Below are positions 36,944 through 49,705 of a stretch of 64,000 bases of DNA, piece by piece; within the stretch, counting starts at the first letter, position 1; every line of letters begins with the position of its first letter. The position numbers and the translations under genes were made by a program. This DNA is from Escherichia phage UGJNEcP3. The stretch lies in sequence record OV876907; one strand, 5' to 3'. The notes beneath the pieces were generated by a model that was not told the origin of the DNA, did no database searches, and worked only from the letters and a program-made list of their open reading frames with translations.

Positions 36944-36973
36944 ATAGTACCACATCCTTGTGGTGTTGTAAAC
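36944..36973 (-). promoter_or_regulatory. early-type promoter GTTTACA-N17-TACTAT
   Basis: Upstream of the 36625-36915 gene; -35 overlaps the Alt-A stop codon. Confidence 0.5.
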
Positions 36974-39096
36974 TACATTTTGAATTTATTTGATAAAGAA
37001 GAGATATCCAAAGACGCGGCAAGGATTTCCATAGCTTCATTGCTTTCAGAAATGGATTCACTAATCAAGAACTGACTGAATCCATCCATCAGGCGAACTT
37101 CGCCAGTTTCCATCAAATGGTCACCATCGTAAACAGATTCGCTGAGCTCTGAAGGAGGTGTTACGGTAGCTTCCATAAGGTATTTGTGAGATACTCTATC
37201 ATTCATGGCAAAAGACGCTACTTTATCAACCTTCAACAATAATCCACGCGGAAGGATAATTTCTGCTTCTTCAGCATATTCTGTAAGGTCGCCAGGAGCG
37301 ATAACTTTAACTGCTTCAGCACCTCGAATAACCATACCAATTTCAGCAATTCTATCCGCAGGGCCTTCAGGTGCAATTGGATTACCAAACTCGTCTTCTT
37401 CCCATTCCACCTCTTCGTCATCGACTTCACCCACATCAGATGAACTACCACTAGCCAATTTAAACAACTCATCGGCTGAGGATAAAGAACCTTCATCACC
37501 AACAAAAACTGCTTGGTTGTCGAGGGCCATATAATTTTTACCAAATTCGCCAAAGATGTTAGGCTTTAATGAGGCCGACACAAAGTTCTTAAAGTAAAAT
37601 GTTTTGTTATCGATATTATGACGCAGAATTTTGTATGGTAAATCCTGACCACGATACAAAATAGTACCCTTAGGAAGTTTAATACCCTTAGTAAATGCTG
37701 AGTCTAAATCCTTAATCAATTTAATAGCCGTTGTATTGTTTTCGGATTCAGGTTTACCTAAAAGGAATAAGTTCATAGGAGCATATTCAGCTGCGCAATA
37801 TTCAATAATAGCATTGCTTTCGTCTTTGGTTAAGTCCTTAGGTTTAATGAGCTCACCTGAATAAGCATATGCATCACTAATAGAATCGTTAATTAGTTTA
37901 TAAACGGCTTCCATAGCGAAAGCAATTCGAGAGGCCTTTTCTGAAGGGGAGCCTTTAAAACGAGCGCTCAAGTTATTAACAATTTTCTTAATAATATCCA
38001 GACTATTGGTGGTATTGATTTGCGAAAGGCCACTTAAAAGTCTATCGACTTCTGTATTAAAAAATGCCATATTATTAGAGTAAATTTCAAACCCTTGTTT
38101 ATCTCTATTAGCATAATTTAGTTTAAATTTACTATCAGTCATTAAAGCGTGTGTGAGAGCAATAGTGTATCTAAAGTTGGCAAGGTCCTCGCTCTTAGAT
38201 TTAAACTGAGAAGCCTGGCGCATTTTGGTAATAGCACCTTTTTTAAAGTTCTGACTAATCTGTTCAATACCTTCATTCTCAGGGCCTTCAGCCGTGTGAA
38301 CCGGTACAGAAGCTTCAAACTCGTTATAAACCTGCAATTCTTTAGGGGACAAAGTTTCAGGCTCAGCAGTAGAATACTGCGCGGCCGCTGCCATACGACG
38401 CGAAATCTTAGTACGAGTAATGACAGCCTTATCAGTACGTTTCTCTTCAACTTGTGCAATAGATGCCGCTACGGCTTCTACTTTACTTACGGCCTGGCCG
38501 GTTTTCTTAGAAACATACACTTCGCCAACTTTAGACTCGACTTTAGTATAAAGATTGGCATCAATTTCAGGCATACCCTTGATATCTTCAATATTAGCAC
38601 CACGACGTACTAAAAGAACGTAGGTATGTTTTCCGCTGAATTGGAACATGTGGTCAACAACTTTAAACTTACCACCGGTACGGGCCATAGCCAAACGAGC
38701 TAATACGCGCTGAACGGTAGGGCCTTTACCTTTCATTTTCTTAGTAGGGAAACGGAATAAAACCGCGTCCATTTTAAGTTTGTTTATTTGTTCATATATG
38801 GTATCGAAAATGGTGTTCAGTGTACCGAGTGGATCGGTACCCAAACCACCCTTGAGTTCTGCCGGAGCGCCTTTAGCAGATAAACTCATTAAGATAACAT
38901 GGACGTACTTATCGCCATTTTTAACCATCTTAATAGCGTCGCCTTCAGACGCATAAGATACCATACGCGCTACTAAATTGTCATTACCAGGAGCATGTAC
39001 CGCAAAAATCTGCGGTACGCCTGAGCCAGGTTTAAGATTTGTTACCGGATAGTTTTTAGCGGAATCGCTATCAAAAACTTCGTTTAAATTTTCCAT
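36973..39096 (-). CDS. alt: Alt-like ADP-ribosyltransferase, paralogue A (third in transcription order)
   Basis: N-terminus MENLNEVFDSD...; ART motifs YRGQ / VSASL / EIILPRG in the C-terminal third; central segment unlike the other two copies. Confidence 0.8.
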   Translation of the reverse strand: MENLNEVFDSDSAKNYPVTNLKPGSGVPQIFAVHAPGNDNLVARMVSYASEGDAIKMVKNGDKYVHVILMSLSAKGAPAELKGGLGTDPLGTLNTIFDTIYEQINKLKMDAVLFRFPTKKMKGKGPTVQRVLARLAMARTGGKFKVVDHMFQFSGKHTYVLLVRRGANIEDIKGMPEIDANLYTKVESKVGEVYVSKKTGQAVSKVEAVAASIAQVEEKRTDKAVITRTKISRRMAAAAQYSTAEPETLSPKELQVYNEFEASVPVHTAEGPENEGIEQISQNFKKGAITKMRQASQFKSKSEDLANFRYTIALTHALMTDSKFKLNYANRDKQGFEIYSNNMAFFNTEVDRLLSGLSQINTTNSLDIIKKIVNNLSARFKGSPSEKASRIAFAMEAVYKLINDSISDAYAYSGELIKPKDLTKDESNAIIEYCAAEYAPMNLFLLGKPESENNTTAIKLIKDLDSAFTKGIKLPKGTILYRGQDLPYKILRHNIDNKTFYFKNFVSASLKPNIFGEFGKNYMALDNQAVFVGDEGSLSSADELFKLASGSSSDVGEVDDEEVEWEEDEFGNPIAPEGPADRIAEIGMVIRGAEAVKVIAPGDLTEYAEEAEIILPRGLLLKVDKVASFAMNDRVSHKYLMEATVTPPSELSESVYDGDHLMETGEVRLMDGFSQFLISESISESNEAMEILAASLDISSLSNKFKM

Positions 39097-39099
39097 TAT

Positions 39100-41148
39100 T
39101 TACCCTTGGGTGAATTTTTCTGGGGTTTCGTCAAAATTAATACATGAAGCTAAAATAGGCATTATATCCACCTTGGTCGATTTGACGAATGAATCAAAAG
39201 ACACACGGTTGTCGGTCTCTGTTTCTACGCCTTGGTAAACAACCAATTCGCCGGTTTCCATCAATGCATCACCATCATAGATAACCGCATTTTCTGCTAG
39301 TTGGTCTGTGGTCTGGATATCAGCTTCCAATAATTTGGTGTTGTAGTTTCCTTTATATGAGGCATCTGTAATTTTAGTAATCTTAACAGTAGTTCCACGT
39401 GGAAGAATAACCTCTTGTTCTGTTGGAGAACCTGACAATTCACCGGGCACAATTACGTTAATAGAGTCTGCACCGGAAATTTTCCAACCGATGTTCATCA
39501 TTGTATTTTCGGAACTCGTCAGCATACTTGGAAGAACAATTTCATTATTGCCTTGGAAAGATGTCCCAGCGCGATAGTCCTGATGAACTGCGGCCATTGC
39601 GACGTTTGATACCCAGCCGCCAAAGATAATCGGCTTAAGGGACGTTGATACATAGTTCCTGAAATAAAACAATTTTGAGTGTTTGATTTTATCAAAAGTG
39701 TTAACATTTAAATATTGACCACGCCAAAGTGTAATATCAGGTGGCAATTTATGGCCAATTTCAAATGCCGCATCCATATCATTAATTACTTCAATTACAC
39801 GATAACTATCAATAAATTCTGCATCCTCTTCATAATAATTACCCAACAAATAATTATTAACATCGGTATAATATTGGCCACAATAAGAAGAAATAGCCTC
39901 ACGCTGCCCATACTCAAATCGATTATCGCTATAACTGGCTGTAAAATGCATAACACTTTCTGACGCTTCATTAGCAAAGTCGGTAACAGCAGCACTTATA
40001 CGTTGAGCATACTCTTGTTCCCAAAGCTCTGCTGCATATTCTGCCGCATCCATATTAGGAGGAGCCTCATTCATTTTTCTTTCGATAAATGCAGCTTTGC
40101 GAAGGTTAAGAACCTCTGCACATGATTCGGCAAAAATCTGCATCTGCTTCATACTGCCGACAGGAGCACGTTTAAGTTCACGATGCATACGGTTAAAAAT
40201 TGGGTCAGAGTCTTCGACTCGAATTTCTTCTTTCCAAACACCGTTTGCTCGCATAGCCATATCTGCCGCGCGCATACGCTCCATAGTATTCGTTTCAGAA
40301 GGCTGAATAAAAATTTCCAGTTCTTCATAATCATCGATAAGTTCTGCTGTTGCTGGGGCACTAAATTTTGATGCCTCTGCATCAATCTCATTCCAACCTT
40401 CCGGAACTTCATCTCGAGGAGAATACTGGGCTGCGGCTACAGCACGCCTAGAAATCTTGGTAGTAGTAATAACGGCCTTATCCGTACGTTTTTCTTCGAC
40501 TGCCGCTATACTAGCAGATAGTGCTTCTATTTTGGTTACCGATTGGCCTGTTTTCTTGGATACATAAACCTCACCAACTTTAGACTCAACCTTAGTGTAA
40601 AGGTCTGCATCAATTTCAGGCATACCTTTTATGTCCTCAATATTAGCTTGTTTACGGACCAGTAAAACGTATGTATGTTTGCCTGTAAATTGATACATAT
40701 CATCGACAACTTTAAACTTGCCGCCAGTACGAGCCATCGCCAAACGTGCCAATACACGTTGAACAGTAGGACCCTTACCTTTCATTTTCTTGGTAGGGAA
40801 CCGGAAAAGAACTGCATCCATTTTAAGTTTGTTTACTTGTTCGTATACAGTATCAAAAATGGTATTCAGCGTACCAAGTGGGTCAGAACCTAACCCACCT
40901 TTCAACTCGGCTGGGCTACCCTTAGCAGACAAACTCATCAAAATAACATGAACATATTTGTCACCCGGCTTAACCATTTTAATAGCGTCTCCTTGAGACG
41001 CATAAGATACCATACGAGCAACCAGATTATCATTACCTGGTGCTTGGATAGAGAAAATCTGTGGAATACCGGGACCCGGTTTAAGATTTGTTACTGGATA
41101 GTTTTTAGCGGAATCACTATCAAAAACCTCATTTAAATTTTCCATCAT
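39100..41148 (-). CDS. alt: Alt-like ADP-ribosyltransferase, paralogue B
   Basis: N-terminal about 230 aa near-identical to paralogue A; motifs WRGQ / VSTSL / EVILPRG; start may be the second ATG (41145). Confidence 0.8.
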   Translation of the reverse strand: MMENLNEVFDSDSAKNYPVTNLKPGPGIPQIFSIQAPGNDNLVARMVSYASQGDAIKMVKPGDKYVHVILMSLSAKGSPAELKGGLGSDPLGTLNTIFDTVYEQVNKLKMDAVLFRFPTKKMKGKGPTVQRVLARLAMARTGGKFKVVDDMYQFTGKHTYVLLVRKQANIEDIKGMPEIDADLYTKVESKVGEVYVSKKTGQSVTKIEALSASIAAVEEKRTDKAVITTTKISRRAVAAAQYSPRDEVPEGWNEIDAEASKFSAPATAELIDDYEELEIFIQPSETNTMERMRAADMAMRANGVWKEEIRVEDSDPIFNRMHRELKRAPVGSMKQMQIFAESCAEVLNLRKAAFIERKMNEAPPNMDAAEYAAELWEQEYAQRISAAVTDFANEASESVMHFTASYSDNRFEYGQREAISSYCGQYYTDVNNYLLGNYYEEDAEFIDSYRVIEVINDMDAAFEIGHKLPPDITLWRGQYLNVNTFDKIKHSKLFYFRNYVSTSLKPIIFGGWVSNVAMAAVHQDYRAGTSFQGNNEIVLPSMLTSSENTMMNIGWKISGADSINVIVPGELSGSPTEQEVILPRGTTVKITKITDASYKGNYNTKLLEADIQTTDQLAENAVIYDGDALMETGELVVYQGVETETDNRVSFDSFVKSTKVDIMPILASCINFDETPEKFTQG

Positions 41149-43236
41149 TTACCCTTGGATGAATTTTTCTGGGATGCCATAGAGGTCTATGCATGAAGCC
41201 AAAAGAGACAGTACATCAACCCGTGTAGATTTAACAAATGAATCAAAAGATACAGGGCTTTCGGAAGTATCGAAATCATCTTGATATACGACCAACTCAC
41301 CGGTTTCCATTAGTACGTCACCATCATATACCACAGATTCTTGAAGCTCATCTGATGTCATAACTTCAGCTTGAATAAATTTATTGTTAGACACCGTCCC
41401 GGAACCAGTATTGGCTGATGCATCCACGATTTTATCTATTTTTACAAGTAGCCCGCGTGGTAAAATTATTTCCTTTTCGTTGGCATGCATGCTTAATTGG
41501 CCAGGATAAATCACGTTAACCTTATGAGCGCCACTAATAGCCCAGCCAACATCAACACGGATTTGATCCGGCGCATACATATGTGTACGCACTTGACTAT
41601 CAGAGATGGTAACGCCTTCGTCATTATTATCAATGTTTAATTCTTTTCGAACATCATCGGAAGCAAGACCAATAGCCGCATTCTCTTTAAAGCCACCAAA
41701 AATGATTGGAGCTAATGAGGTTGAAACATAGTTTCTAAAATAGAATACCTTATTTTTAACTAATGCTTCGTAGATAGGCGCGCGCAAAGATTGTGCTCTA
41801 TAAACCATTATTCCTTCAGGTAAACGGTCTCCATTTTTAAAGGCAGAATCCATTCCATCAATAGCACGTTTAACTTCGCTTTCGTCCAAAACTTCATAAA
41901 AGCCTGGTTTATAACGACCAAGAAGGACATTGTTAATATCAATATAAGCTGAAGAGGCGTATTCTCTGATAGCTCGTTTTTCTGCAAGTGTATATTGTTT
42001 AGGGTCTCGAGATGTTGTTATATTAAGAATTTCTCTAGTTGATTCTATAGCGTATGTATACATTATCTTAGACAAGAATGAAGACTTACGTTGTTTCCAT
42101 ACTATTTCACTGTTTTCATTCAATATCTCTTTTTCCAAATGGAAATTGTCTTTTCTATAATCTTCAAACCAATCACTTTTAATAGATTCTGCGATTTCAT
42201 TAGCAACTTCAACAAAGGCAGCTAAAGCTTTAACTGACGTGGTTTTTTCATTTTTAATTTTTTTGACAAATGTTTCTAAAGAAGAGTTAATTTTATCACC
42301 GTAAGAAACTTCATCCGCAAATTTAAATGAATCATCCATAGTATTATAAATTTTAAAATCAATAGCCGTAGCCAACTTATCCTTAGCTGTTTCAGATGAT
42401 AACGATAGTTCAACTTCGGCCGCTTGTGGAATTAATTCTGCCGTAGCAGGCGCACTGAACTCACTAGCAGTTTGCTCGTATTTCTGAAACAATTCACCTT
42501 CATTACGATCTGATTCTAATGACTGGCTTGCTGCAATAGCACGTCGCGAAATCTTAGTCTTGGTTATAACCATTTTATCGGTGCGACGTTCTTCAACCTT
42601 AGCAATACTGCCGGCAATAGCAGTTTCTTTAGTAACCTGCAGGCCTTCTTTTTTAGAAATATAAACTTCACCAACATCAGAATCTACCTTAGTGTATAAT
42701 TCGGAATTAATTCCTGGCATACCCTTAATATCTTCAATGTTAGCTTGTTTACGAACTACTAGGATGTAAGTATGTTTACCGGTAAATTGGTACATAGCCG
42801 GAACTACTTTAAAACGTCCACCTGTTTTCTGTGCTACCAAACGTTGGATAATCCGTTGAACAATAGGCCCTTGACCTTTCATTTTCTTAGTAGGGAAACG
42901 GAACATCACTGCATCCATACGAAGCTTTTTAACTTGGTCATAAACCACATCAAAAATAGTATTAATCGCATCTACGGGAGTAGGGCCAAGGCCACCCTTA
43001 AGTTCGGCTGGAGTACCTTTAGCTGAAAGGCTCATAAGGATAACGTGGGCATATTTATCGCCTAATTTAACTTGTTTAATAGCATCACCTTCAGAAGCGT
43101 AGGATACCATACGCGCTACTAATTGGGATTCTGCATCGCCAATCTTCCAAATCTGAGGTACTTTAAGTTTTGGGTTCAAGTTTACTGTAGGCAGAGTGCC
43201 TTCGGACTCAAACACTTCATTTAATTGTTCGGTCAT
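41149..43236 (-). CDS. alt: Alt-like ADP-ribosyltransferase, paralogue C (first in transcription order)
   Basis: N-terminus MTEQLNEVFESE...; motifs YRAQ / VSTSL / EIILPRG; C-terminal tail shared with paralogue B; AAGAGGAA RBS. Confidence 0.8.
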   Translation of the reverse strand: MTEQLNEVFESEGTLPTVNLNPKLKVPQIWKIGDAESQLVARMVSYASEGDAIKQVKLGDKYAHVILMSLSAKGTPAELKGGLGPTPVDAINTIFDVVYDQVKKLRMDAVMFRFPTKKMKGQGPIVQRIIQRLVAQKTGGRFKVVPAMYQFTGKHTYILVVRKQANIEDIKGMPGINSELYTKVDSDVGEVYISKKEGLQVTKETAIAGSIAKVEERRTDKMVITKTKISRRAIAASQSLESDRNEGELFQKYEQTASEFSAPATAELIPQAAEVELSLSSETAKDKLATAIDFKIYNTMDDSFKFADEVSYGDKINSSLETFVKKIKNEKTTSVKALAAFVEVANEIAESIKSDWFEDYRKDNFHLEKEILNENSEIVWKQRKSSFLSKIMYTYAIESTREILNITTSRDPKQYTLAEKRAIREYASSAYIDINNVLLGRYKPGFYEVLDESEVKRAIDGMDSAFKNGDRLPEGIMVYRAQSLRAPIYEALVKNKVFYFRNYVSTSLAPIIFGGFKENAAIGLASDDVRKELNIDNNDEGVTISDSQVRTHMYAPDQIRVDVGWAISGAHKVNVIYPGQLSMHANEKEIILPRGLLVKIDKIVDASANTGSGTVSNNKFIQAEVMTSDELQESVVYDGDVLMETGELVVYQDDFDTSESPVSFDSFVKSTRVDVLSLLASCIDLYGIPEKFIQG

Positions 43237-43258
43237 AATAATTCCTCTTTAATAACCT

Positions 43259-43266
43259 TATTTATG
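43259..43266 (-). promoter_or_regulatory. near-consensus late promoter (CATAAATA) upstream of the first alt paralogue
   Basis: 7 of 8 match to TATAAATA, about 23 nt upstream of the Alt-C ATG, just after a terminator hairpin. Confidence 0.35.
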
Positions 43267-43272
43267 CCAGAA

Positions 43273-43288
43273 AAGGCCCGAAGGCCTT
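43273..43288 (-). terminator. UUCG hairpin between the small post-ligase ORF and the first alt gene
   Basis: Minus strand AAGGCC-TTCG-GGCCTT then TTTTCT. Confidence 0.45.
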
Positions 43289-43290
43289 TA

Positions 43291-43473
43291 TTAAAGTACT
43301 AACAACGTACGGTACACTTCAAATTTAGGACCCTTTTCATAGCGGTCGAAATTATCTTTGAAATCGGCGAACGCGATTTCATTTTCAAATTCAAGGACAA
43401 TTTGGGACACTGCGGTGGAGACATCGCCACCTTCTTTATATCCAATAACCACGGTTTCTAAATAAACTTTCAT
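43291..43473 (-). CDS. small hypothetical protein between gene 30 and the alt array
   Basis: ATG 1 nt after gene 30 stop (TAAtATG); 60 aa; track start 43572 would overlap gene 30; terminator hairpin follows. Confidence 0.45.
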   Translation of the reverse strand: MKVYLETVVIGYKEGGDVSTAVSQIVLEFENEIAFADFKDNFDRYEKGPKFEVYRTLLVL

Positions 43474-43474
43474 A

Positions 43475-44995
43475 TTATAACCCAGTTTGAGACCAATCAC
43501 CGAATACATCTTCAAATGTATCAGCTTCTGTTTTATCGAAACGCCAACCTTTAATGATAAGTAAGAAAACACCTACAGTATCGGTACGCCCTTTAGAATG
43601 AACCCAACCATTACATTCACAATCAGCGATACGTCCAATCAATTTACCTTCACGTGCTTCCTTCATCAGTCGTTCACGGTCCATATCAGGACGGTCTTCT
43701 AAAGGAATCAATATTTTCTTTTTAGTCTTAAAGTCTTTAGTGTGAGTTGTGTCTTTAAAGCCTGAACCACAGTCACTTGTAATTCGACGACACCGCGATA
43801 CTAACTCAACACCACCAATCTTGTTAGGGTCTTTAGAGTGTTCATAATAACCTACTACTTCTAAAGCGATATCGATTACTTCTTTGAACTTGATAAGATT
43901 CTTAGAACGGCGGTTTTCCCAATAGGAGTCCATGTTCTTAAGGATAATGCCTTCCAGACCTTGGTCGACATATTTCTTATAAACTTCACGAGCTTCTTTA
44001 AGATTATAGACCCATTGGTTTTCAATTGCTTCAACACGAGTTTTACCATGCAATACGACATTATGCCCTACCATATGTTCTAAGGCGGCAAAACGTACGT
44101 CGTATTTCTCGCCTTTAATTTTACCTTCAGAGTACACCACTTCAAGAGGAACATAGTCCCATGCCTGAAGAACCATACCAGCGGCTTCAGTAGCTGAAAT
44201 AGTACCATTCAGGGATTTGTTAGCTAATCCGTTTGAAGTGCTACGGTCTACAGCGAATTCTTTAGCCTTGCTTAGTTCAGGCATGTCTTCTTCAAACATA
44301 CTAAACAAGTCATTAGCTTCAGGTTGCTTAACCACCGGTTCATGGTAAACTAATTCACCATCAATTAATACGCCACCGGGATGTTTCTGACGTGCATCTT
44401 CAGTCATAACCATGAGCTCTTCAGCCAATAGATTAAGCCCTTGATATTCGTTACCGCCACGTGTAAGGAATGTTACGCCGTCGTTACGAACTTCAGCAAA
44501 ACATCGAGCCCCATCAGCTTTTAATTGAGCGAACGCTGGCCATTTAATATTTTTCTTAATCAGAGCTTCGTCATAAGAACTAGCCAACATTTGAGGTTGT
44601 TCAGGGATTAAACCTTTCCAAACCTTGTTAGCAATAGAAATTGATGCGCCACATTCAAGGTCACGCATCATTACGCGACGTAATACCTCAGCGTCCGGAC
44701 CTTTAGCATCAGCAATGATTTGGGCTAGTTCTTCAATAGCCGCATTACCTGTAATCTTACGGGTGGCTAGTGTGAACTCAGCGAAATCAAGAAGGTCTTC
44801 AAGTGTAATCATACCAAAGGATTGAGACGTAAATCCAGGTTCTGGCCACTTTTTAATGCCGTAATTCAGACGACGGGTATAGGCCATACGATAAACACGT
44901 TTCAGAAGCTCATTGTCCTTTTCACGAGCAATAATAGCTTCTTTAGCTTTAGTAGAATCAATAGCAGCAATTTCGTTTAAAATATCTAAAATCAT
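43475..44995 (-). CDS. 30: ATP-dependent DNA ligase gp30
   Basis: ORF track; MILDILNEIA N-terminus and adenylation motif KADGARC collinear with T4 DNA ligase. Confidence 0.93.
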   Translation of the reverse strand: MILDILNEIAAIDSTKAKEAIIAREKDNELLKRVYRMAYTRRLNYGIKKWPEPGFTSQSFGMITLEDLLDFAEFTLATRKITGNAAIEELAQIIADAKGPDAEVLRRVMMRDLECGASISIANKVWKGLIPEQPQMLASSYDEALIKKNIKWPAFAQLKADGARCFAEVRNDGVTFLTRGGNEYQGLNLLAEELMVMTEDARQKHPGGVLIDGELVYHEPVVKQPEANDLFSMFEEDMPELSKAKEFAVDRSTSNGLANKSLNGTISATEAAGMVLQAWDYVPLEVVYSEGKIKGEKYDVRFAALEHMVGHNVVLHGKTRVEAIENQWVYNLKEAREVYKKYVDQGLEGIILKNMDSYWENRRSKNLIKFKEVIDIALEVVGYYEHSKDPNKIGGVELVSRCRRITSDCGSGFKDTTHTKDFKTKKKILIPLEDRPDMDRERLMKEAREGKLIGRIADCECNGWVHSKGRTDTVGVFLLIIKGWRFDKTEADTFEDVFGDWSQTGL

Positions 44996-45255
44996 TTTAC
45001 CGTCCTTACAGTTTGTGTACTTCTATTATAAGCTACTTCATCTAAAAGCTCATTTAAAGTTTTGTGATACGATATAATACGCTTATCTTTAATATCGTAT
45101 TCAGTAACATACATAAATCCACGCCGAACACATTGGATAAAGATATCTTCATCTTTGGCTTGGAAATATACAGGGTTCAATCGAAGGAATTGTCTAACGT
45201 TTCCATAATCATGGGATTTAGGGGTCCCATCAGTAATTGTATGAACAACAAACAT
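44992..45255 (-). CDS. hypothetical protein (30.x cluster)
   Basis: ATG 45255 in TAAtATG arrangement with upstream stop; track start at 45279 is TTG; 3' end overlaps gene 30 start. Confidence 0.55.
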   Translation of the reverse strand: MFVVHTITDGTPKSHDYGNVRQFLRLNPVYFQAKDEDIFIQCVRRGFMYVTEYDIKDKRIISYHKTLNELLDEVAYNRSTQTVRTVK

Positions 45256-45256
45256 A

Positions 45257-45895
45257 TTAACCTCGTGCAACCCATTCAACAGCCGTATTATTACGAAGGG
45301 ATTCTATAGCTGCAATATCGTCCCATGAATTAACCTTTACTGCCAAATTGGGTTTAAAGTCGCGTTCACCACGGGCTAACCAATAAACTTGGATATCCAT
45401 GAGAACATTAGATGCAGCATCACAGTGGTGGGCCAAATCATCAACATAAAACTTAATATGTTTGCCATACGTATTTTTAGCTCTTATGAACAGGTCTTCT
45501 TTTGATTCTGAATGACCACACATCAGAATCTCTTTGAATGCGCCAGGGAACAAAGCATTCAAATTGAATTGTCTATTCAGCAGAGCATCAATTGAGTCGC
45601 CTAGCGCAGTCACGGCTACAAAATCGAAGTCTTTTTTGAGCTTGTTGATGTGTTTTAATGCGTCCATGTAAGGAGACAGATAACGAATGAAATCTGACTG
45701 GTTATATTTCTCAATTAAACGAGCGCCTAATTCATTATCACAATTAAACAGCTCGCCAGGAGATAAGAAACGTTCGTCCTGAATCATATTCAAAATATGT
45801 TCTAAAGGCAAATTATATTTCTGTGCGAAATAAGGCAAGCCGGACTGCCAACTTAAACATACTCCATCGATATCTGTTAAGATAACTGGTTTCAT
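45257..45895 (-). CDS. HAD-superfamily hydrolase (nucleotidase/phosphatase-like)
   Basis: N-terminal HAD motif I ILTDIDGV; further acidic motif YVDD; ATGA overlap with upstream gene. Confidence 0.6.
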   Translation of the reverse strand: MKPVILTDIDGVCLSWQSGLPYFAQKYNLPLEHILNMIQDERFLSPGELFNCDNELGARLIEKYNQSDFIRYLSPYMDALKHINKLKKDFDFVAVTALGDSIDALLNRQFNLNALFPGAFKEILMCGHSESKEDLFIRAKNTYGKHIKFYVDDLAHHCDAASNVLMDIQVYWLARGERDFKPNLAVKVNSWDDIAAIESLRNNTAVEWVARG

Positions 45896-46350
45896 AATAA
45901 ATCTCTCAATTTGTTTAGGATGTCGATAAACTCTTTTTCAGTTAGTATTGTATCACATTCTGTAAGGTGGCTCGCCGTTGAATGCTTTAAAACCTTACCT
46001 TTAGTGGCTTGTAAAGCTTCTCGGAATCCTTTGTTCTGGAGCGCTGCTTCAAAATATGCACTTGTATACAACTCTTTCCATGATTCAGAGTATCTTGAAA
46101 AGGGAACTCCCATCCAAAAGAGGGTCCCACGGTCTTGAGCTCTTGCATAAGTTCGTCCAGCTTGCATTGCGGCCAATCCGGAGAGGCTAAATATACGTTT
46201 TTGTTGTTCATGATTTCTCACCTTACATCCTTGGAGGAATCCTTCGAGTCCACCAAATTGGATACTATCCATAACGAAAGGCCATTTAGCAAAGTTACTT
46301 AATGCACATGATGGCCATGGGAAATTACTTCTTATCTCTAACTCAGACAT
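45892..46350 (-). CDS. NADAR / YbiA-like (DUF1768) domain protein
   Basis: Segments LSNFAKWPF and LSGLAAMQAGR resemble E. coli YbiA FSNFAAWPI and SSPMVAARMGR as recalled from memory; start taken at ATG 46350 (track start is GTG 46359). Confidence 0.55.
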   Translation of the reverse strand: MSELEIRSNFPWPSCALSNFAKWPFVMDSIQFGGLEGFLQGCKVRNHEQQKRIFSLSGLAAMQAGRTYARAQDRGTLFWMGVPFSRYSESWKELYTSAYFEAALQNKGFREALQATKGKVLKHSTASHLTECDTILTEKEFIDILNKLRDLL

Positions 46351-46555
46351 CTTTAACACTTATAATGTCAACATCAGCCCAATGGCCATAAGCAGGTAGA
46401 CGGTCTGCAATGGATAAACCGCCATCATATTTCAACATTTTAATTGTTTTAGTATACGGTTCAACATTTCGGGCCCATGGACTTACATCAGTCACACGAT
46501 ACGTAACTTCAACCATTTCTGTACCCAACAATTTCTGAATTAATTTCTTAAACAT
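46343..46555 (-). CDS. hypothetical protein (30.x cluster)
   Basis: ORF track; TAAcATG coupling with upstream gene. Confidence 0.5.
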   Translation of the reverse strand: MFKKLIQKLLGTEMVEVTYRVTDVSPWARNVEPYTKTIKMLKYDGGLSIADRLPAYGHWADVDIISVKDV

Positions 46556-46556
46556 G

Positions 46557-46751
46557 TTATCCTCGACGGAGCATTTTAATTAATGAAAGCTCTTCAGCCA
46601 TACGTACATCTTCAGTACCATCTACCCATAAAACTGCATAGGCTTCTTTAATTACTTTACCGTTAATTTTAAAAGCAGGTAACACCTTAGAAATCATTCC
46701 TGGGATACCTATACCTTTTAGCTGAACGGTTTGAGATAAGAATAAATGCAT
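46557..46751 (-). CDS. hypothetical protein (30.x cluster)
   Basis: ORF track; TAATG overlap with upstream gene. Confidence 0.5.
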   Translation of the reverse strand: MHLFLSQTVQLKGIGIPGMISKVLPAFKINGKVIKEAYAVLWVDGTEDVRMAEELSLIKMLRRG

Positions 46752-47038
46752 TAGAACCTCATCTGAAATCCATGTGATTTAACATTACCACCGTAGATGT
46801 CAGAAGTATTGACTTCGCGGGCAGCGCTAGGGTCGATATTAATATCATGGTTGAGCTTAGTGATTGCTAGGGTGTCACGACCATTAACTGTACGGAATTC
46901 TACCGGACAAACCACATCAGCATAAGCCTTAATGGATTCGCGAGTAGGCTGTTTGTCAGCAGGAACATCTTTACCTGCCTTAGAGAAAACAACTTCACAG
47001 AAATTTTTACGAGTATCGAAATAAGTGGTCATAAACAT
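46751..47038 (-). CDS. hypothetical protein (30.x cluster)
   Basis: Start moved to ATG 47038 (MFMTTYFD) after GAGGAAAA; track ATG 47071 is inside a GC hairpin. Confidence 0.5.
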   Translation of the reverse strand: MFMTTYFDTRKNFCEVVFSKAGKDVPADKQPTRESIKAYADVVCPVEFRTVNGRDTLAITKLNHDINIDPSAAREVNTSDIYGGNVKSHGFQMRF

Positions 47039-47079
47039 AATATTTTCCTCAATGGAGGCCGAAGCCTCCATTTTTAAGA

Positions 47080-47445
47080 TTAGATATCAAATTCGTTAAG
47101 AACTACATCAAAGATTGCTTCCAGGTGTTCAGGTTTAGCACGGTTGCTCAGGATGTGACGAATCCAAGTTTTAACCAGAAGCTTACGATTATCGCCGTTC
47201 CAGCAAGGATGGGTACCTAAATCACGTTGACGGAAATCGTCATCTAAAGCGATTTTAAAAGTAGAACCTTCCATAGTGATTGAAACCGTAATACCATTTT
47301 CAAAGCGCATGTAAACGTAGTTAGGAGTCATGCACTGTTCGATTTCACACACTGTACCGTTTTCGTGTTTCCACAGGCAAATAACTTCGGAAGAACCAGC
47401 GATACCGTTAGAAACATATTTACGTTCGAAGTTGATGTAGTTCAT
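47080..47445 (-). CDS. hypothetical protein with duplicated promoter-leader (copy 1)
   Basis: ORF track; GGAGAA RBS; leader about 45 nt near-identical to that of the 47519-47851 gene. Confidence 0.6.
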   Translation of the reverse strand: MNYINFERKYVSNGIAGSSEVICLWKHENGTVCEIEQCMTPNYVYMRFENGITVSITMEGSTFKIALDDDFRQRDLGTHPCWNGDNRKLLVKTWIRHILSNRAKPEHLEAIFDVVLNEFDI

Positions 47446-47485
47446 TTTATTCTCCAGTTTGTTTTCGTATTATTTGGTACAGGTC

Positions 47486-47514
47486 TATAATAACACAACC
47501 TGTACCAAAGTAAA
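47486..47514 (-). promoter_or_regulatory. early-type promoter TTTACT-N17-TATTAT within duplicated leader (copy 1)
   Basis: Upstream of 47080-47445; 10-bp inverted repeat TTGGTACAGG / CCTGTACCAA flanks the -10. Confidence 0.45.
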
Positions 47515-47518
47515 ACAT

Positions 47519-47851
47519 TTATTTCACAACATTCCAATTTTTCATATCAAGTTTACCAACTTTTTTCATCTGAGCAATCAGACGTTCAGCACGTTTGCGG
47601 GCATTAACATAATAGAATTCACCAATTTCGTTTTCTTCAATACGGCCGGTAATTACAGTTTTCAGTTCATAAATCCAACCTGTAAAGAAGTTATGAAGCT
47701 CGATGGTAAAGGTGAAATCGGTACCCATACCTTCTGTTGTTTCAACTTCGATGATATCACCTTCAACTGCAGTCAGGACCCACATGGTTTCTTGATATTC
47801 ACCGTTGAAACATTTAGCTTTAACAGATGCATTCAGGTTTACAGTTTTCAT
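47519..47851 (-). CDS. hypothetical protein with duplicated promoter-leader (copy 2)
   Basis: ORF track; GGAGAA RBS; TGTACA-N16-TACTATAG promoter; shares an EG..T.F..I.L motif region with the neighbouring gene. Confidence 0.6.
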   Translation of the reverse strand: MKTVNLNASVKAKCFNGEYQETMWVLTAVEGDIIEVETTEGMGTDFTFTIELHNFFTGWIYELKTVITGRIEENEIGEFYYVNARKRAERLIAQMKKVGKLDMKNWNVVK

Positions 47852-47892
47852 TTTATTCTCCGGTTTGTTTTCGTATTATTTGGTACATGTCT

Positions 47893-47920
47893 ATAGTATC
47901 ATGCCTACCGGAGATGTACA
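47893..47920 (-). promoter_or_regulatory. early-type promoter TGTACA-N16-TACTATAG within duplicated leader (copy 2)
   Basis: Upstream of 47519-47851; downstream 45 nt near-identical to copy 1. Confidence 0.45.
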
Positions 47921-47949
47921 CCCTTTTTTTAAGATTTAGAAACAAAAAT

Positions 47950-47967
47950 GGGACTCCGAAGAGTCCC
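47950..47967 (-). terminator. intrinsic terminator after the small basic ORF (UUCG tetraloop)
   Basis: Minus strand GGGACTC-TTCG-GAGTCCC then ATTTTTGTT. Confidence 0.6.
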
Positions 47968-47972
47968 ATAAC

Positions 47973-48134
47973 TTATACAATCACTTTACCGAAGCAAGCA
48001 GCATCTGCACGCAATACTGCACGAGCACGAGCTTGAAGCTTATCAACTACCTGATTGATACGCTTGTTAGACGCACGCTTGTAACCAGCGCGTTTAGAGG
48101 TACCGTCAACTACTTTAACTTCTTTCTTAGCCAT
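47973..48134 (-). CDS. small basic protein (about 53 aa), hypothetical
   Basis: Below track cutoff; hand translation MAKKEVKVVDGTSKRAGYKRASNKRINQVVDKLQARARAVLRADAACFGKVIV; highly-expressed-style codons; UUCG terminator follows; coordinates approximate. Confidence 0.4.
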   Translation of the reverse strand: MAKKEVKVVDGTSKRAGYKRASNKRINQVVDKLQARARAVLRADAACFGKVIV

Positions 48135-48392
48135 TTTTAAATCTCTTAAATTAGGATGCAGGACTTATTGGCGTTGCCTGCGCAAGCCCTCAAGGGAACA
48201 TAGGTTTTGGATATTTAACGACAGGATAACCATAAACCTCGTCATCATACCAACCACGACTTAGACAGATAACCTTTTTCTGACGCGTGATAGTACAAAA
48301 TACATTCAAGAGGTACACCGTAAAACTGCCGGGGTCTTAAAACTATAATGATTCGCAAATCATTAATCAGACAGTTCGACGGCTCCTCGATT

Positions 48393-48641
48393 TTACTTCA
48401 GGGTAATAATAAAATGACGTACTGCTTTACGAGCTGCTGAAGCCAAAGGCTTAGCATATTTCAGTTCATCTTTTGCTTCCAGTTCAGCCGCCAGTGTGGC
48501 CTGTGCTGGGTTCAGATGTTTGAAATAACGCAGGATTTCCAGTGCTTCGGCTTCAACATCAATAGATGCGCCGTAGTTTTCATGACCGTTGTTCCAAGCG
48601 TTGCGTTGCAGTTCAAGAGCGTGATTCAGTTGTTTGTTCAT
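48393..48641 (-). CDS. rIII: lysis inhibition accessory protein RIII
   Basis: ORF track; 82 aa, matching T4 rIII in size and position between 31 and the 30.x cluster. Confidence 0.7.
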   Translation of the reverse strand: MNKQLNHALELQRNAWNNGHENYGASIDVEAEALEILRYFKHLNPAQATLAAELEAKDELKYAKPLASAARKAVRHFIITLK

Positions 48642-48779
48642 TTTAGTTTCTCAATTCGAGATAAAGATTGGTGGACACGTTCTTCTGAATTTCACTTCCT
48701 TTCGGCAAGTCTCTCAGTTGTAGTCCACCGCTTAGGATTCTCCGGTTAACTAACTAGTCCGGCAGCCAATCCATATTAT

Positions 48780-48787
48780 TATTTATA
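48780..48787 (-). promoter_or_regulatory. candidate late promoter TATAAATA (rIII, long leader)
   Basis: Reverse complement of TATAAATA abutting gp31 stop; about 139 nt upstream of rIII ATG. Confidence 0.3.
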
Positions 48788-49111
48788 TCACTTATAAAGA
48801 CACGGAATTGCCTTGTAGTGACAAGTAACGAATTTTTGTTTAATTTCTTTAGGTTGTTTAATACCCAATGCAACCAACGGATGAGGCACGTTAGCAATCT
48901 TACCAACAGGAAGTGGAGTCAAATCGCCTACTTCACAAAAATCTTCAGGGACATCAGGTCCTACAGAATAAATTTCACAAAGTTCAGGGATTTCACCTTG
49001 ATGAAGTTTGCCAATAACGATACCAGATGCAGTAGTTTCTTCATCACCAGCTTGTTTTGGTTCGGAAACGAGAATAACATATTCTCCGACCGCTTTAATA
49101 GGAAGTTCCAT
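48788..49111 (-). CDS. 31: co-chaperonin gp31 (GroES analogue)
   Basis: ORF track; collinear with T4 gp31 ([25 protein letters not shown]). Confidence 0.92.
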
Positions 49112-49169
49112 ATTTAATCCATATTGTTTTGTTGATAGATTAATAATAACACGCTATTCTTAAAGCATA

Positions 49170-49469
49170 TTACAGGACAAGCAGAGTTTCAGTCTGGAGC
49201 CCGTTAATAGAAATCAGTTTATCGAAACGGAACGAGCGCCAGTCATTAACCTTGGTATCAAATACACGAATATAATTAACCGGTTCTTTATTAGCTTCTG
49301 GGCCAGGTGCTTGAATTTCTTTATACGGGAGGAGGTCCAGGTCGCGAGTACAAGTCATACGACGAACGCTACCATCCGTCTTTTCAAACAGAACTTCGTG
49401 AAAGCCTACAGACAAGATAGTCTTGACTTTTTCACGGAGCCGAATAGTTTCTTGTTCAGTTAAAATCAT
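49170..49469 (-). CDS. hypothetical protein (31.x position)
   Basis: ORF track; ATG confirmed. Confidence 0.5.
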   Translation of the reverse strand: MILTEQETIRLREKVKTILSVGFHEVLFEKTDGSVRRMTCTRDLDLLPYKEIQAPGPEANKEPVNYIRVFDTKVNDWRSFRFDKLISINGLQTETLLVL

Positions 49470-49471
49470 AA

Positions 49472-49705
49472 TTATTCCAGGATAGTTTTAATAGTGGTTG
49501 CATTACGCTCTTTTAGAGCTCTTAATAGGCTATGGCAATTATCAAGAATAGGTACTGTTTTGTAATTCATGTTGGCATAAACCCACTCGGATTTATAGTA
49601 CGATTTCCATCGAGAGAAAAAGTACTTTTTGTATTCTACTGAATAGGCTACTAAGCTTTCACCTTTTGAGTTCAGACCTGAAAACTTAACTAGTCGAAAT
49701 TTCAT
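49472..49705 (-). CDS. hypothetical protein (31.x position)
   Basis: ORF track. Confidence 0.5.
   Translation of the reverse strand: MKFRLVKFSGLNSKGESLVAYSVEYKKYFFSRWKSYYKSEWVYANMNYKTVPILDNCHSLLRALKERNATTIKTILE

Follow-up and report, generated by a model that had tools for sequence, protein, structure and literature searches.

Gene 30.3 of the window

A 64,000-nucleotide stretch of DNA from Escherichia phage UGJNEcP3 (sequence record OV876907; this whole stretch is called the window below) carries on its minus strand the open reading frame (ORF) 45892-46350, which we identify, with a probability of about 93%, as the counterpart, orthologous and from a Dhakavirus, of T4 gene 30.3 (adfN), the gene of a stand-alone N-glycohydrolase of the NADAR fold that counters DarTG1. 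An earlier reading of the window by a model, made from the sequence without database searches (the original prediction), had located this ORF and its neighbour 45257-45895 correctly, and had taken the first for a protein resembling E. coli YbiA and the second for a HAD-family hydrolase.

The product of ORF 45892-46350, gp30.3, matched the Pfam family PF08010 (Phage_30_3) over profile positions 2-138 of 138 with E = 1.4e-62 and 210 bits, the gathering cutoff being 36, a match that chance comes nowhere near explaining. It also matched PHROG 652. Identity to T4 gp30.3 was 84% over the full length (152 vs 151 amino acids in the clone compared), and none of the 24 positions out of 152 that differ from the T4 protein was an invariant position of the family. 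The window was 100% identical to the record OV877765.1 of Escherichia phage UGJNEcP4, a Dhakavirus (JS98-like, Tevenvirinae), and was syntenic with the JS98 genes alt-30-30.1-30.2-30.3-30.4. By sequence and by position the gene is an orthologue of T4 30.3.

NADAR fold and catalytic residues

Relatedness to NADAR proteins was assessed with a family profile based on 49 diverse gp30.3 relatives (alignment A1), to which the conservation values for gp30.3 given below also refer. When the PDB was searched with this profile by hmmsearch, E. coli YbiA was the top match (E = 0.021), and hhalign of the profile against YbiA gave a probability of 91.4% (E = 9.3e-7, 97 columns). Eight of the 49 relatives matched the Pfam NADAR family PF08719 directly, the best with E = 1.2e-5. 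The YbiA segments that the original prediction had quoted, FSNFAAWPI and SSPMVAARMGR, do occur in YbiA, and the same segments were aligned by the 49-relative profile.

The AlphaFold2 model of gp30.3 had a predicted local distance difference test (pLDDT) score of 94.3 and a predicted template modelling (pTM) score of 0.89. A Foldseek search of the PDB with this model returned only three matches above noise, all of them NADAR structures: YbiA (2b3w) as the top match with E = 4e-5 and template modelling (TM) scores of 0.67/0.62, the Phytophthora NADAR PnNADAR with ADP-ribose (8bau), and the Geobacter lovleyi NADAR (8bat). The fourth match had E > 5. Structure prediction, proposed in the original prediction as a check, thus came out in favour of a NADAR. 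By profile, fold and catalytic residues, gp30.3 of the window belongs to the NADAR superfamily (YbiA fold).

The catalytic segment E-x-(F/Y)-x-Q-x(2)-K is present in the window protein as LEGFLQGCK and holds E36 and K43, the residues whose absence after alignment would have spoken against the original prediction. E36 and H123 were invariant in all 49 relatives, and K43 was conserved in at least 90% of them. H123 follows directly after the last beta-strand of the model (residues 120-122). A His at the last strand is the signature of the phage gp30.3 subfamily of NADARs, with Glu found in YbiA and Asp in DarT-linked NADARs (PMC11125620). Replacement E36A or K43A abolishes the function of T4 AdfN, and the RB69 allele is inactive, its C-terminal helix having been lost by truncation (PMC11257639). 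This helix (residues 138-151 of the model) is intact in the window protein.

Function of AdfN

In 2012 de Souza and Aravind classed phage gp30.3 as a NADAR on bioinformatic grounds, as cited in later work (PMC11125620, PMC11825919). Purified T4 gp30.3 hydrolyses guanine-ADP-ribose in DNA and does not hydrolyse thymidine-ADP-ribose (Toxins 2024, PMC11125620). Johannesman et al. (bioRxiv 2024; Nat Commun 2025, PMC11825919) renamed T4 30.3 adfN, for 'anti-DarT factor NADAR', and found T4 AdfN to be both necessary and sufficient for T-even phages to resist DarTG1. In the same study, T4 AdfN stripped ADP-ribose from DNA in vitro, did not bind DarT1, and had no effect against DarTG2. A transposon insertion sequencing (Tn-seq) preprint of 2025 confirms the anti-DarTG1 phenotype independently: insertions in T4 30.3 were tolerated on E. 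coli K-12 at 27 of 28 sites and were lost on a host with DarTG1, with a log2 fold change (log2FC) of -7.25 (10.1101/2025.11.20.689424).

By analogy with the T4 orthologue, the window allele would encode an active enzyme and would confer resistance to DarTG1. In the mechanism established for T4, when the phage infects a host carrying DarTG1, the DarT1 toxin ADP-ribosylates guanine bases of the phage DNA and blocks its replication. AdfN then cuts the bond between guanine and ribose, so that ADP-ribose is released and the DNA is intact again. The protein acts as a phage-carried 'orphan antitoxin' that does not bind the toxin. The removal of DarT-type guanine ADP-ribosylation from phage DNA, put forward in the original prediction, has thus been demonstrated for an orthologue 84% identical to the window protein (PMC11125620, PMC11825919).

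Gene 30.2, a HAD-superfamily phosphatase next to adfN

ORF 45257-45895 corresponds to gene 30.2, and its product matched PHROG 420. The conservation of its motifs was assessed in 34 relatives (alignment A2). HAD motif I, LTDIDGV (D8 and D10), which had been noticed in the original prediction, is present and invariant. T96 (motif II) was conserved in at least 90% of the sequences, and K132 (motif III) and D152-D153 (motif IV) were invariant. The second Asp of the HAD DxD motif, D10 in gp30.2, points to a phosphotransferase or phosphatase and not to a dehalogenase. Gp30.2 has the Rossmannoid fold of HAD proteins and carries a C1 cap.

Gp30.2 of the window reached no gathering threshold of the Pfam HAD families, its sole match being NT5C with 13.6 bits against a cutoff of 24.8 (E = 0.064), and PF00702 was matched by six of the 34 relatives (best E = 3.5e-4). 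It is thus the fold and the motifs that place gp30.2 in the superfamily; of the HAD assignment proposed in the original prediction, the agreement with Pfam models failed and the fold and all four motifs held. The closest known proteins are the cytosolic and mitochondrial 5'(3')-deoxyribonucleotidases (Pfam NT5C; PDB 2jao, 2i7d, 4mum, 3bwv). The leaning towards NT5C was weak (E = 0.0029 for the best gp30.2 relative; E = 0.57 for the gp30.2 profile against 2jao). Gp30.2 shares with mouse cdN a similar DGV..(F/W).SGL context, and the lowest root-mean-square deviation among Foldseek matches was with 5'(3')-deoxyribonucleotidases; structural similarity does not separate the HAD subfamilies. Gp30.2 is a genuine C1-capped HAD enzyme, a separate Mg-dependent phosphatase, and probably acts on a nucleotide-like phosphomonoester. 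A literature search for 'gp30.2' returned nothing.

The T4-type gp30.2 (about 279 amino acids) has a variable low-complexity C-terminal tail of about 70 amino acids, which is missing from the 212-amino acid Dhakavirus form. One metagenomic homologue (P0133, 302 amino acids) carries a DUF3045/gp30.1 domain as a fusion.

In 72 of 76 viral loci with gp30.2, belonging to very diverse T4-like phages, the ligase gene was situated directly downstream. Gene 30.1 (DUF3045) intervened between 30.2 and the ligase gene in only 25 of these loci. In T4-like phages, gp30.2 accompanies the DNA ligase gene as a quasi-core partner, and it is not a part of the anti-DarT mechanism.

Alternative explanations

Several points weigh against the identification of the window gene as a functional adfN. 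All functional data were obtained with the T4 allele, from which the window allele differs as described above. AdfN(T4) was fully effective only during T-even infection, even with the unmodified DNA of T4-GT7, and the authors inferred that it needs an additional T-even protein (PMC11825919). Taken alone, gp30.3 of the window gave no match to Pfam NADAR (PF08719) at E <= 1, no PDB sequence match by phmmer, and none in NCBIfam. The single-sequence searches being empty, the link to NADAR requires profile or fold methods; accordingly, the Pfam search suggested in the original prediction failed with the window sequence and succeeded at the level of the family. Finally, in OV877765.1 gene 30.3 is annotated as encoding 91 amino acids (276 nt, 132993-133268) from M62, and such a product, with the first 61 residues omitted, would be without E36 and K43.

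If the annotation were right, only a C-terminal fragment would be made and the gene would be inactive here; a defect like that of RB69 would have the same consequence, and the RB69 allele is evidence that natural null alleles exist (PMC11257639). We consider an inactive gene extremely unlikely. An open frame free of frameshifts runs from the ATG at 46350 to a full-length C-terminus; residues 1-61 are 85-90% identical to the T4 and C6 homologues, all invariant positions included; and the start overlaps the stop of 30.4 exactly as in JS98 and T4. The start at M62 is regarded as mis-called, the full 152-amino acid ORF being open and conserved. The 91-amino acid annotation leaves an apparent gap of 175 nt before 30.4. 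No more credible than an inactive gene is a metabolic role, in which gp30.3 would be a YbiA-type N-glycosidase engaged in damage control of riboflavin intermediates and not in DNA repair. YbiA is the best fold match in the PDB, and the RefSeq name of the protein is 'N-glycosidase YbiA', but the window protein has the phage-type His123 in place of the Glu by which the YbiA family is defined, the published phylogeny puts gp30.3 proteins nearest to DarT-associated NADARs (PMC11825919), and the T4 orthologue, and in vitro even YbiA, acts on ADP-ribosylated DNA (PMC11125620).

The other two explanations involve neighbouring genes. The original prediction had suggested a tuning of the phage's own ADP-ribosyltransferases and had remarked on the adjacent HAD gene. 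The window does contain the predicted array of ADP-ribosyltransferase (ART) genes, three tandem Alt-like genes beyond the ligase gene that share its strand and are at most 9 kb away, and the NADAR might reverse or tune the modification made by these enzymes. The Alt, ModA and ModB proteins of T4 modify host proteins or RNA and are not known to modify guanine in DNA, and gp30.3 relatives occur in many contexts with no alt gene nearby. The name NADAR was given by de Souza and Aravind for an association with NAD and ADP-ribose, as cited in PMC11125620, which fits such a role; the specificity of T4 gp30.3 for guanine-ADP-ribose in DNA (PMC11125620), its dispensability on K-12 and the only strong phenotype of its mutants being that with DarTG1 (10.1101/2025.11.20.689424) do not, and we find tuning of the phage's own ARTs very improbable. 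A two-enzyme module of NADAR and HAD proteins, in which gp30.2 would be the T-even factor of AdfN(T4), for instance through further processing of the ADP-ribose set free, or of a phosphorylated intermediate, appears equally improbable. In its favour are the ATGA overlap of 30.3 and 30.2, which suggests translational coupling, their adjacency in all close T-even relatives, the additional T-even protein postulated in the AdfN paper (PMC11825919), and the nearly equal numbers of phage database records with gp30.3 (1510) and with gp30.2 (1437), whose host spectrum is the same. This adjacency does not extend far: gp30.2 was found within 6 kb of a gp30.3 relative in only 20 of 80 IMG/VR loci, and in several complete T4-like genomes (Klebsiella, Enterobacter and Erwinia phages) the two genes are about 60 kb apart. 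Where gp30.2 is present, it tracks the ligase gene and not gp30.3, which was nearby in 37 of the 76 loci and adjacent in 21. Other phage NADARs function alone (PMC11825919). T4 mutants with transposons in 30.2 (71 sites) were unaffected by DarTG1, with a log2FC of -0.12 (p = 0.61) vs -7.25 for 30.3 (10.1101/2025.11.20.689424). Given an adjacency limited to T-even-like lineages, the linkage to ligase and the null Tn-seq result under DarTG1, gp30.2 was rejected as the T-even cofactor of AdfN, and the functional pairing of the NADAR with the adjacent HAD protein is disfavoured by synteny and the T4 data.

Gene order and transcription unit

The identification of ORF 45892-46350 as adfN agrees with its surroundings. 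Both ORFs lie within the classic T4 'gene 30-31' block, which is entirely on the minus strand and reads, in the direction of transcription, 30.4, 30.3, 30.2, 30.1 and gene 30, followed by the Alt-like ART genes (Table 1). The original prediction had put the NADAR and HAD genes downstream of the DNA ligase gene and the ART array; the neighbourhood was right, but in transcription 30.3 and 30.2 are upstream of the ligase gene. Packing is tight along the block: the stop of 30.4 overlaps the ATG of 30.3, and 30.3 and 30.2 share the ATGA at 45892-45895.

Table 1. Coordinates of adfN, its conserved residues and the neighbouring genes in the window.
Feature	Position	Strand	Characteristics
Gene 30.3 / adfN	45892..46350	-	ATG at 46350, TGA 45892-45894; 152 amino acids; PF08010 match, AlphaFold2 model, NADAR fold
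Glu36 codon (gaa), catalytic	46243..46245	-	Aligned to YbiA E48
Lys43 codon (aag), catalytic	46222..46224	-	Aligned to YbiA K55
His123 codon	45982..45984	-	Last-strand residue; opposite YbiA E125
C-terminal helix, residues 138-152	45895..45939	-	Model helix 138-151; ORF reads through to LRDLL-stop
Gene 30.4	46343..46555	-	70 amino acids; phrog_2042; last 8 nt overlap adfN start
Gene 30.2	45257..45895	-	ATG at 45895, TAA 45257-45259; 212 amino acids; HAD-superfamily phosphatase with C1 cap
Gene 30.1	44992-45255	-	87 amino acids
Gene 30, ATP-dependent DNA ligase	43475..44995	-	Pfam DNA_ligase_A_M, E = 4e-23; conserved downstream partner of 30.2 by synteny
Alt-like ART paralogues (707, 682 and 695 amino acids)	36973-39096, 39100-41148, 41149-43236	-	Each with C-terminal ADPrib_exo_Tox domain

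In the JS98 reference only two alt genes are annotated where the window has three tandem Alt-like paralogues. The program-made ORF of gene 30.1 (44992-45279) begins at the TTG at 45279, whereas the start annotated in UGJNEcP4 is the ATG at 45255. The latter lies just past the 30.2 stop and gives a product of 87 amino acids with no overlap with 30.2; in JS98, 30.1 is likewise 264 nt long.

A strong terminator-like hairpin (47948-47969, minus strand) with a 9-bp stem, five GC pairs and a T-rich tail was found between the two genes 30.9 and 30.8, just downstream of the former, with promoter-like hexamers after it at 47902-47875 and 47514-47487. The transcription unit containing adfN may have its 5' boundary at the hairpin with these hexamers. 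The promoter and terminator scan of the region 43000-49500 was uninformative, with seven promoter-like sites found vs 17 expected from shuffled sequences.

Distribution of gp30.3 and the neighbour gp30.4

NADARs of the gp30.3 family with about 40% identity to gp30.3 of the window were found on many viral contigs (IMG/VR loci L018-L081), including contigs of 250-500 kb, and the gene appears to be mobile among phage genomes. When the flanking ORFs of 80 gp30.3 loci were clustered, no family recurred in more than seven of the about 60 loci without 30.2. The absence of a recurrent gp30.3 neighbour outside T-even phages fits a stand-alone 'orphan' enzyme.

The 70-amino acid gp30.4 was present in 718 phage records, all of the T-even type, a count close to that of the records (about 730) whose gp30.3 reaches 60% identity or more with that of the window. 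Insertions in T4 30.4 were moderately depleted on DarTG1 (log2FC -1.79, about 3.5-fold; adjusted p = 0.014) (10.1101/2025.11.20.689424). Because the 30.4 stop overlaps the adfN start, the distributions match and the insertions are depleted, gp30.4 is a candidate for a T-even-specific helper of AdfN(T4) encoded in the same operon; we regard such a helper as unlikely. The simplest explanation of the depletion is a polar effect of the 30.4 insertions on the overlapping adfN start.

Comparison with known NADAR proteins

The window gene shares with T4 adfN the gene order 30.4-30.3-30.2-30.1-30, the start/stop overlaps, E36, K43, H123 and the C-terminal helix. T4 AdfN comes from a Tequatrovirus, whereas the window allele, with its 24 substitutions, is from a Dhakavirus.

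Like T4 AdfN, the NADAR antitoxin DarG1, which is encoded in DarT1-NADAR operons, hydrolyses ADP-ribose linked to guanine in DNA (Schuller et al. 2023, as cited in PMC11257639 and PMC11125620). NADARs of this type form the clade closest to gp30.3 in the published phylogeny (PMC11825919), and the structure from G. lovleyi (8bat) has the same NADAR fold (Foldseek TM 0.62). In contrast to DarG1, the window protein consists only of the 152-amino acid core, without the N-terminal extension typical of DarT-linked NADARs, and has His in the last strand where DarG1 has Asp (PMC11125620). Its neighbours are the T4-type genes 30.4 and 30.2 with no adjacent DarT1 gene, so it is not of the DarG1 type. A further difference from DarG1 is that uninfected cells are not saved from DarT1 by AdfN(T4) (PMC11825919).

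E. coli YbiA (2b3w) was the best structural match, and the hhalign span covers the catalytic segment SNFA...E.(F/Y)(L/F)Q..K. The two proteins differ in overall sequence (about 19-25% identity) and in the residue opposite His123 of gp30.3, which is Glu125 in YbiA. The YbiA gene lies on the chromosome beside dinG and is a housekeeping or SOS-operon gene, not an anti-defence gene. AdfN(Bas32) and AdfN(Bas60), of T5-like phages and Vequintavirinae, are likewise phage-borne NADARs that reverse the DarT1 modification; unlike gp30.3, they come from different clades of NADARs, acquired independently, and are active without T-even infection (PMC11825919).

Significance

The NADAR assignment that the original prediction made without database searches was correct, which says something about the method. 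As a discovery it matters little, the function of the AdfN family against DarTG1 having been established already. The deposited annotation of UGJNEcP4 appears to shorten an anti-defence gene, and a correction is due. Gp30.2 can be taken out of the NADAR story as a partner of the ligase gene. In this new phage isolate, the window gene itself is AdfN, an ordinary and already characterised gene of anti-defence, and its family, fold, chemistry and role were published between 2012 and 2025.

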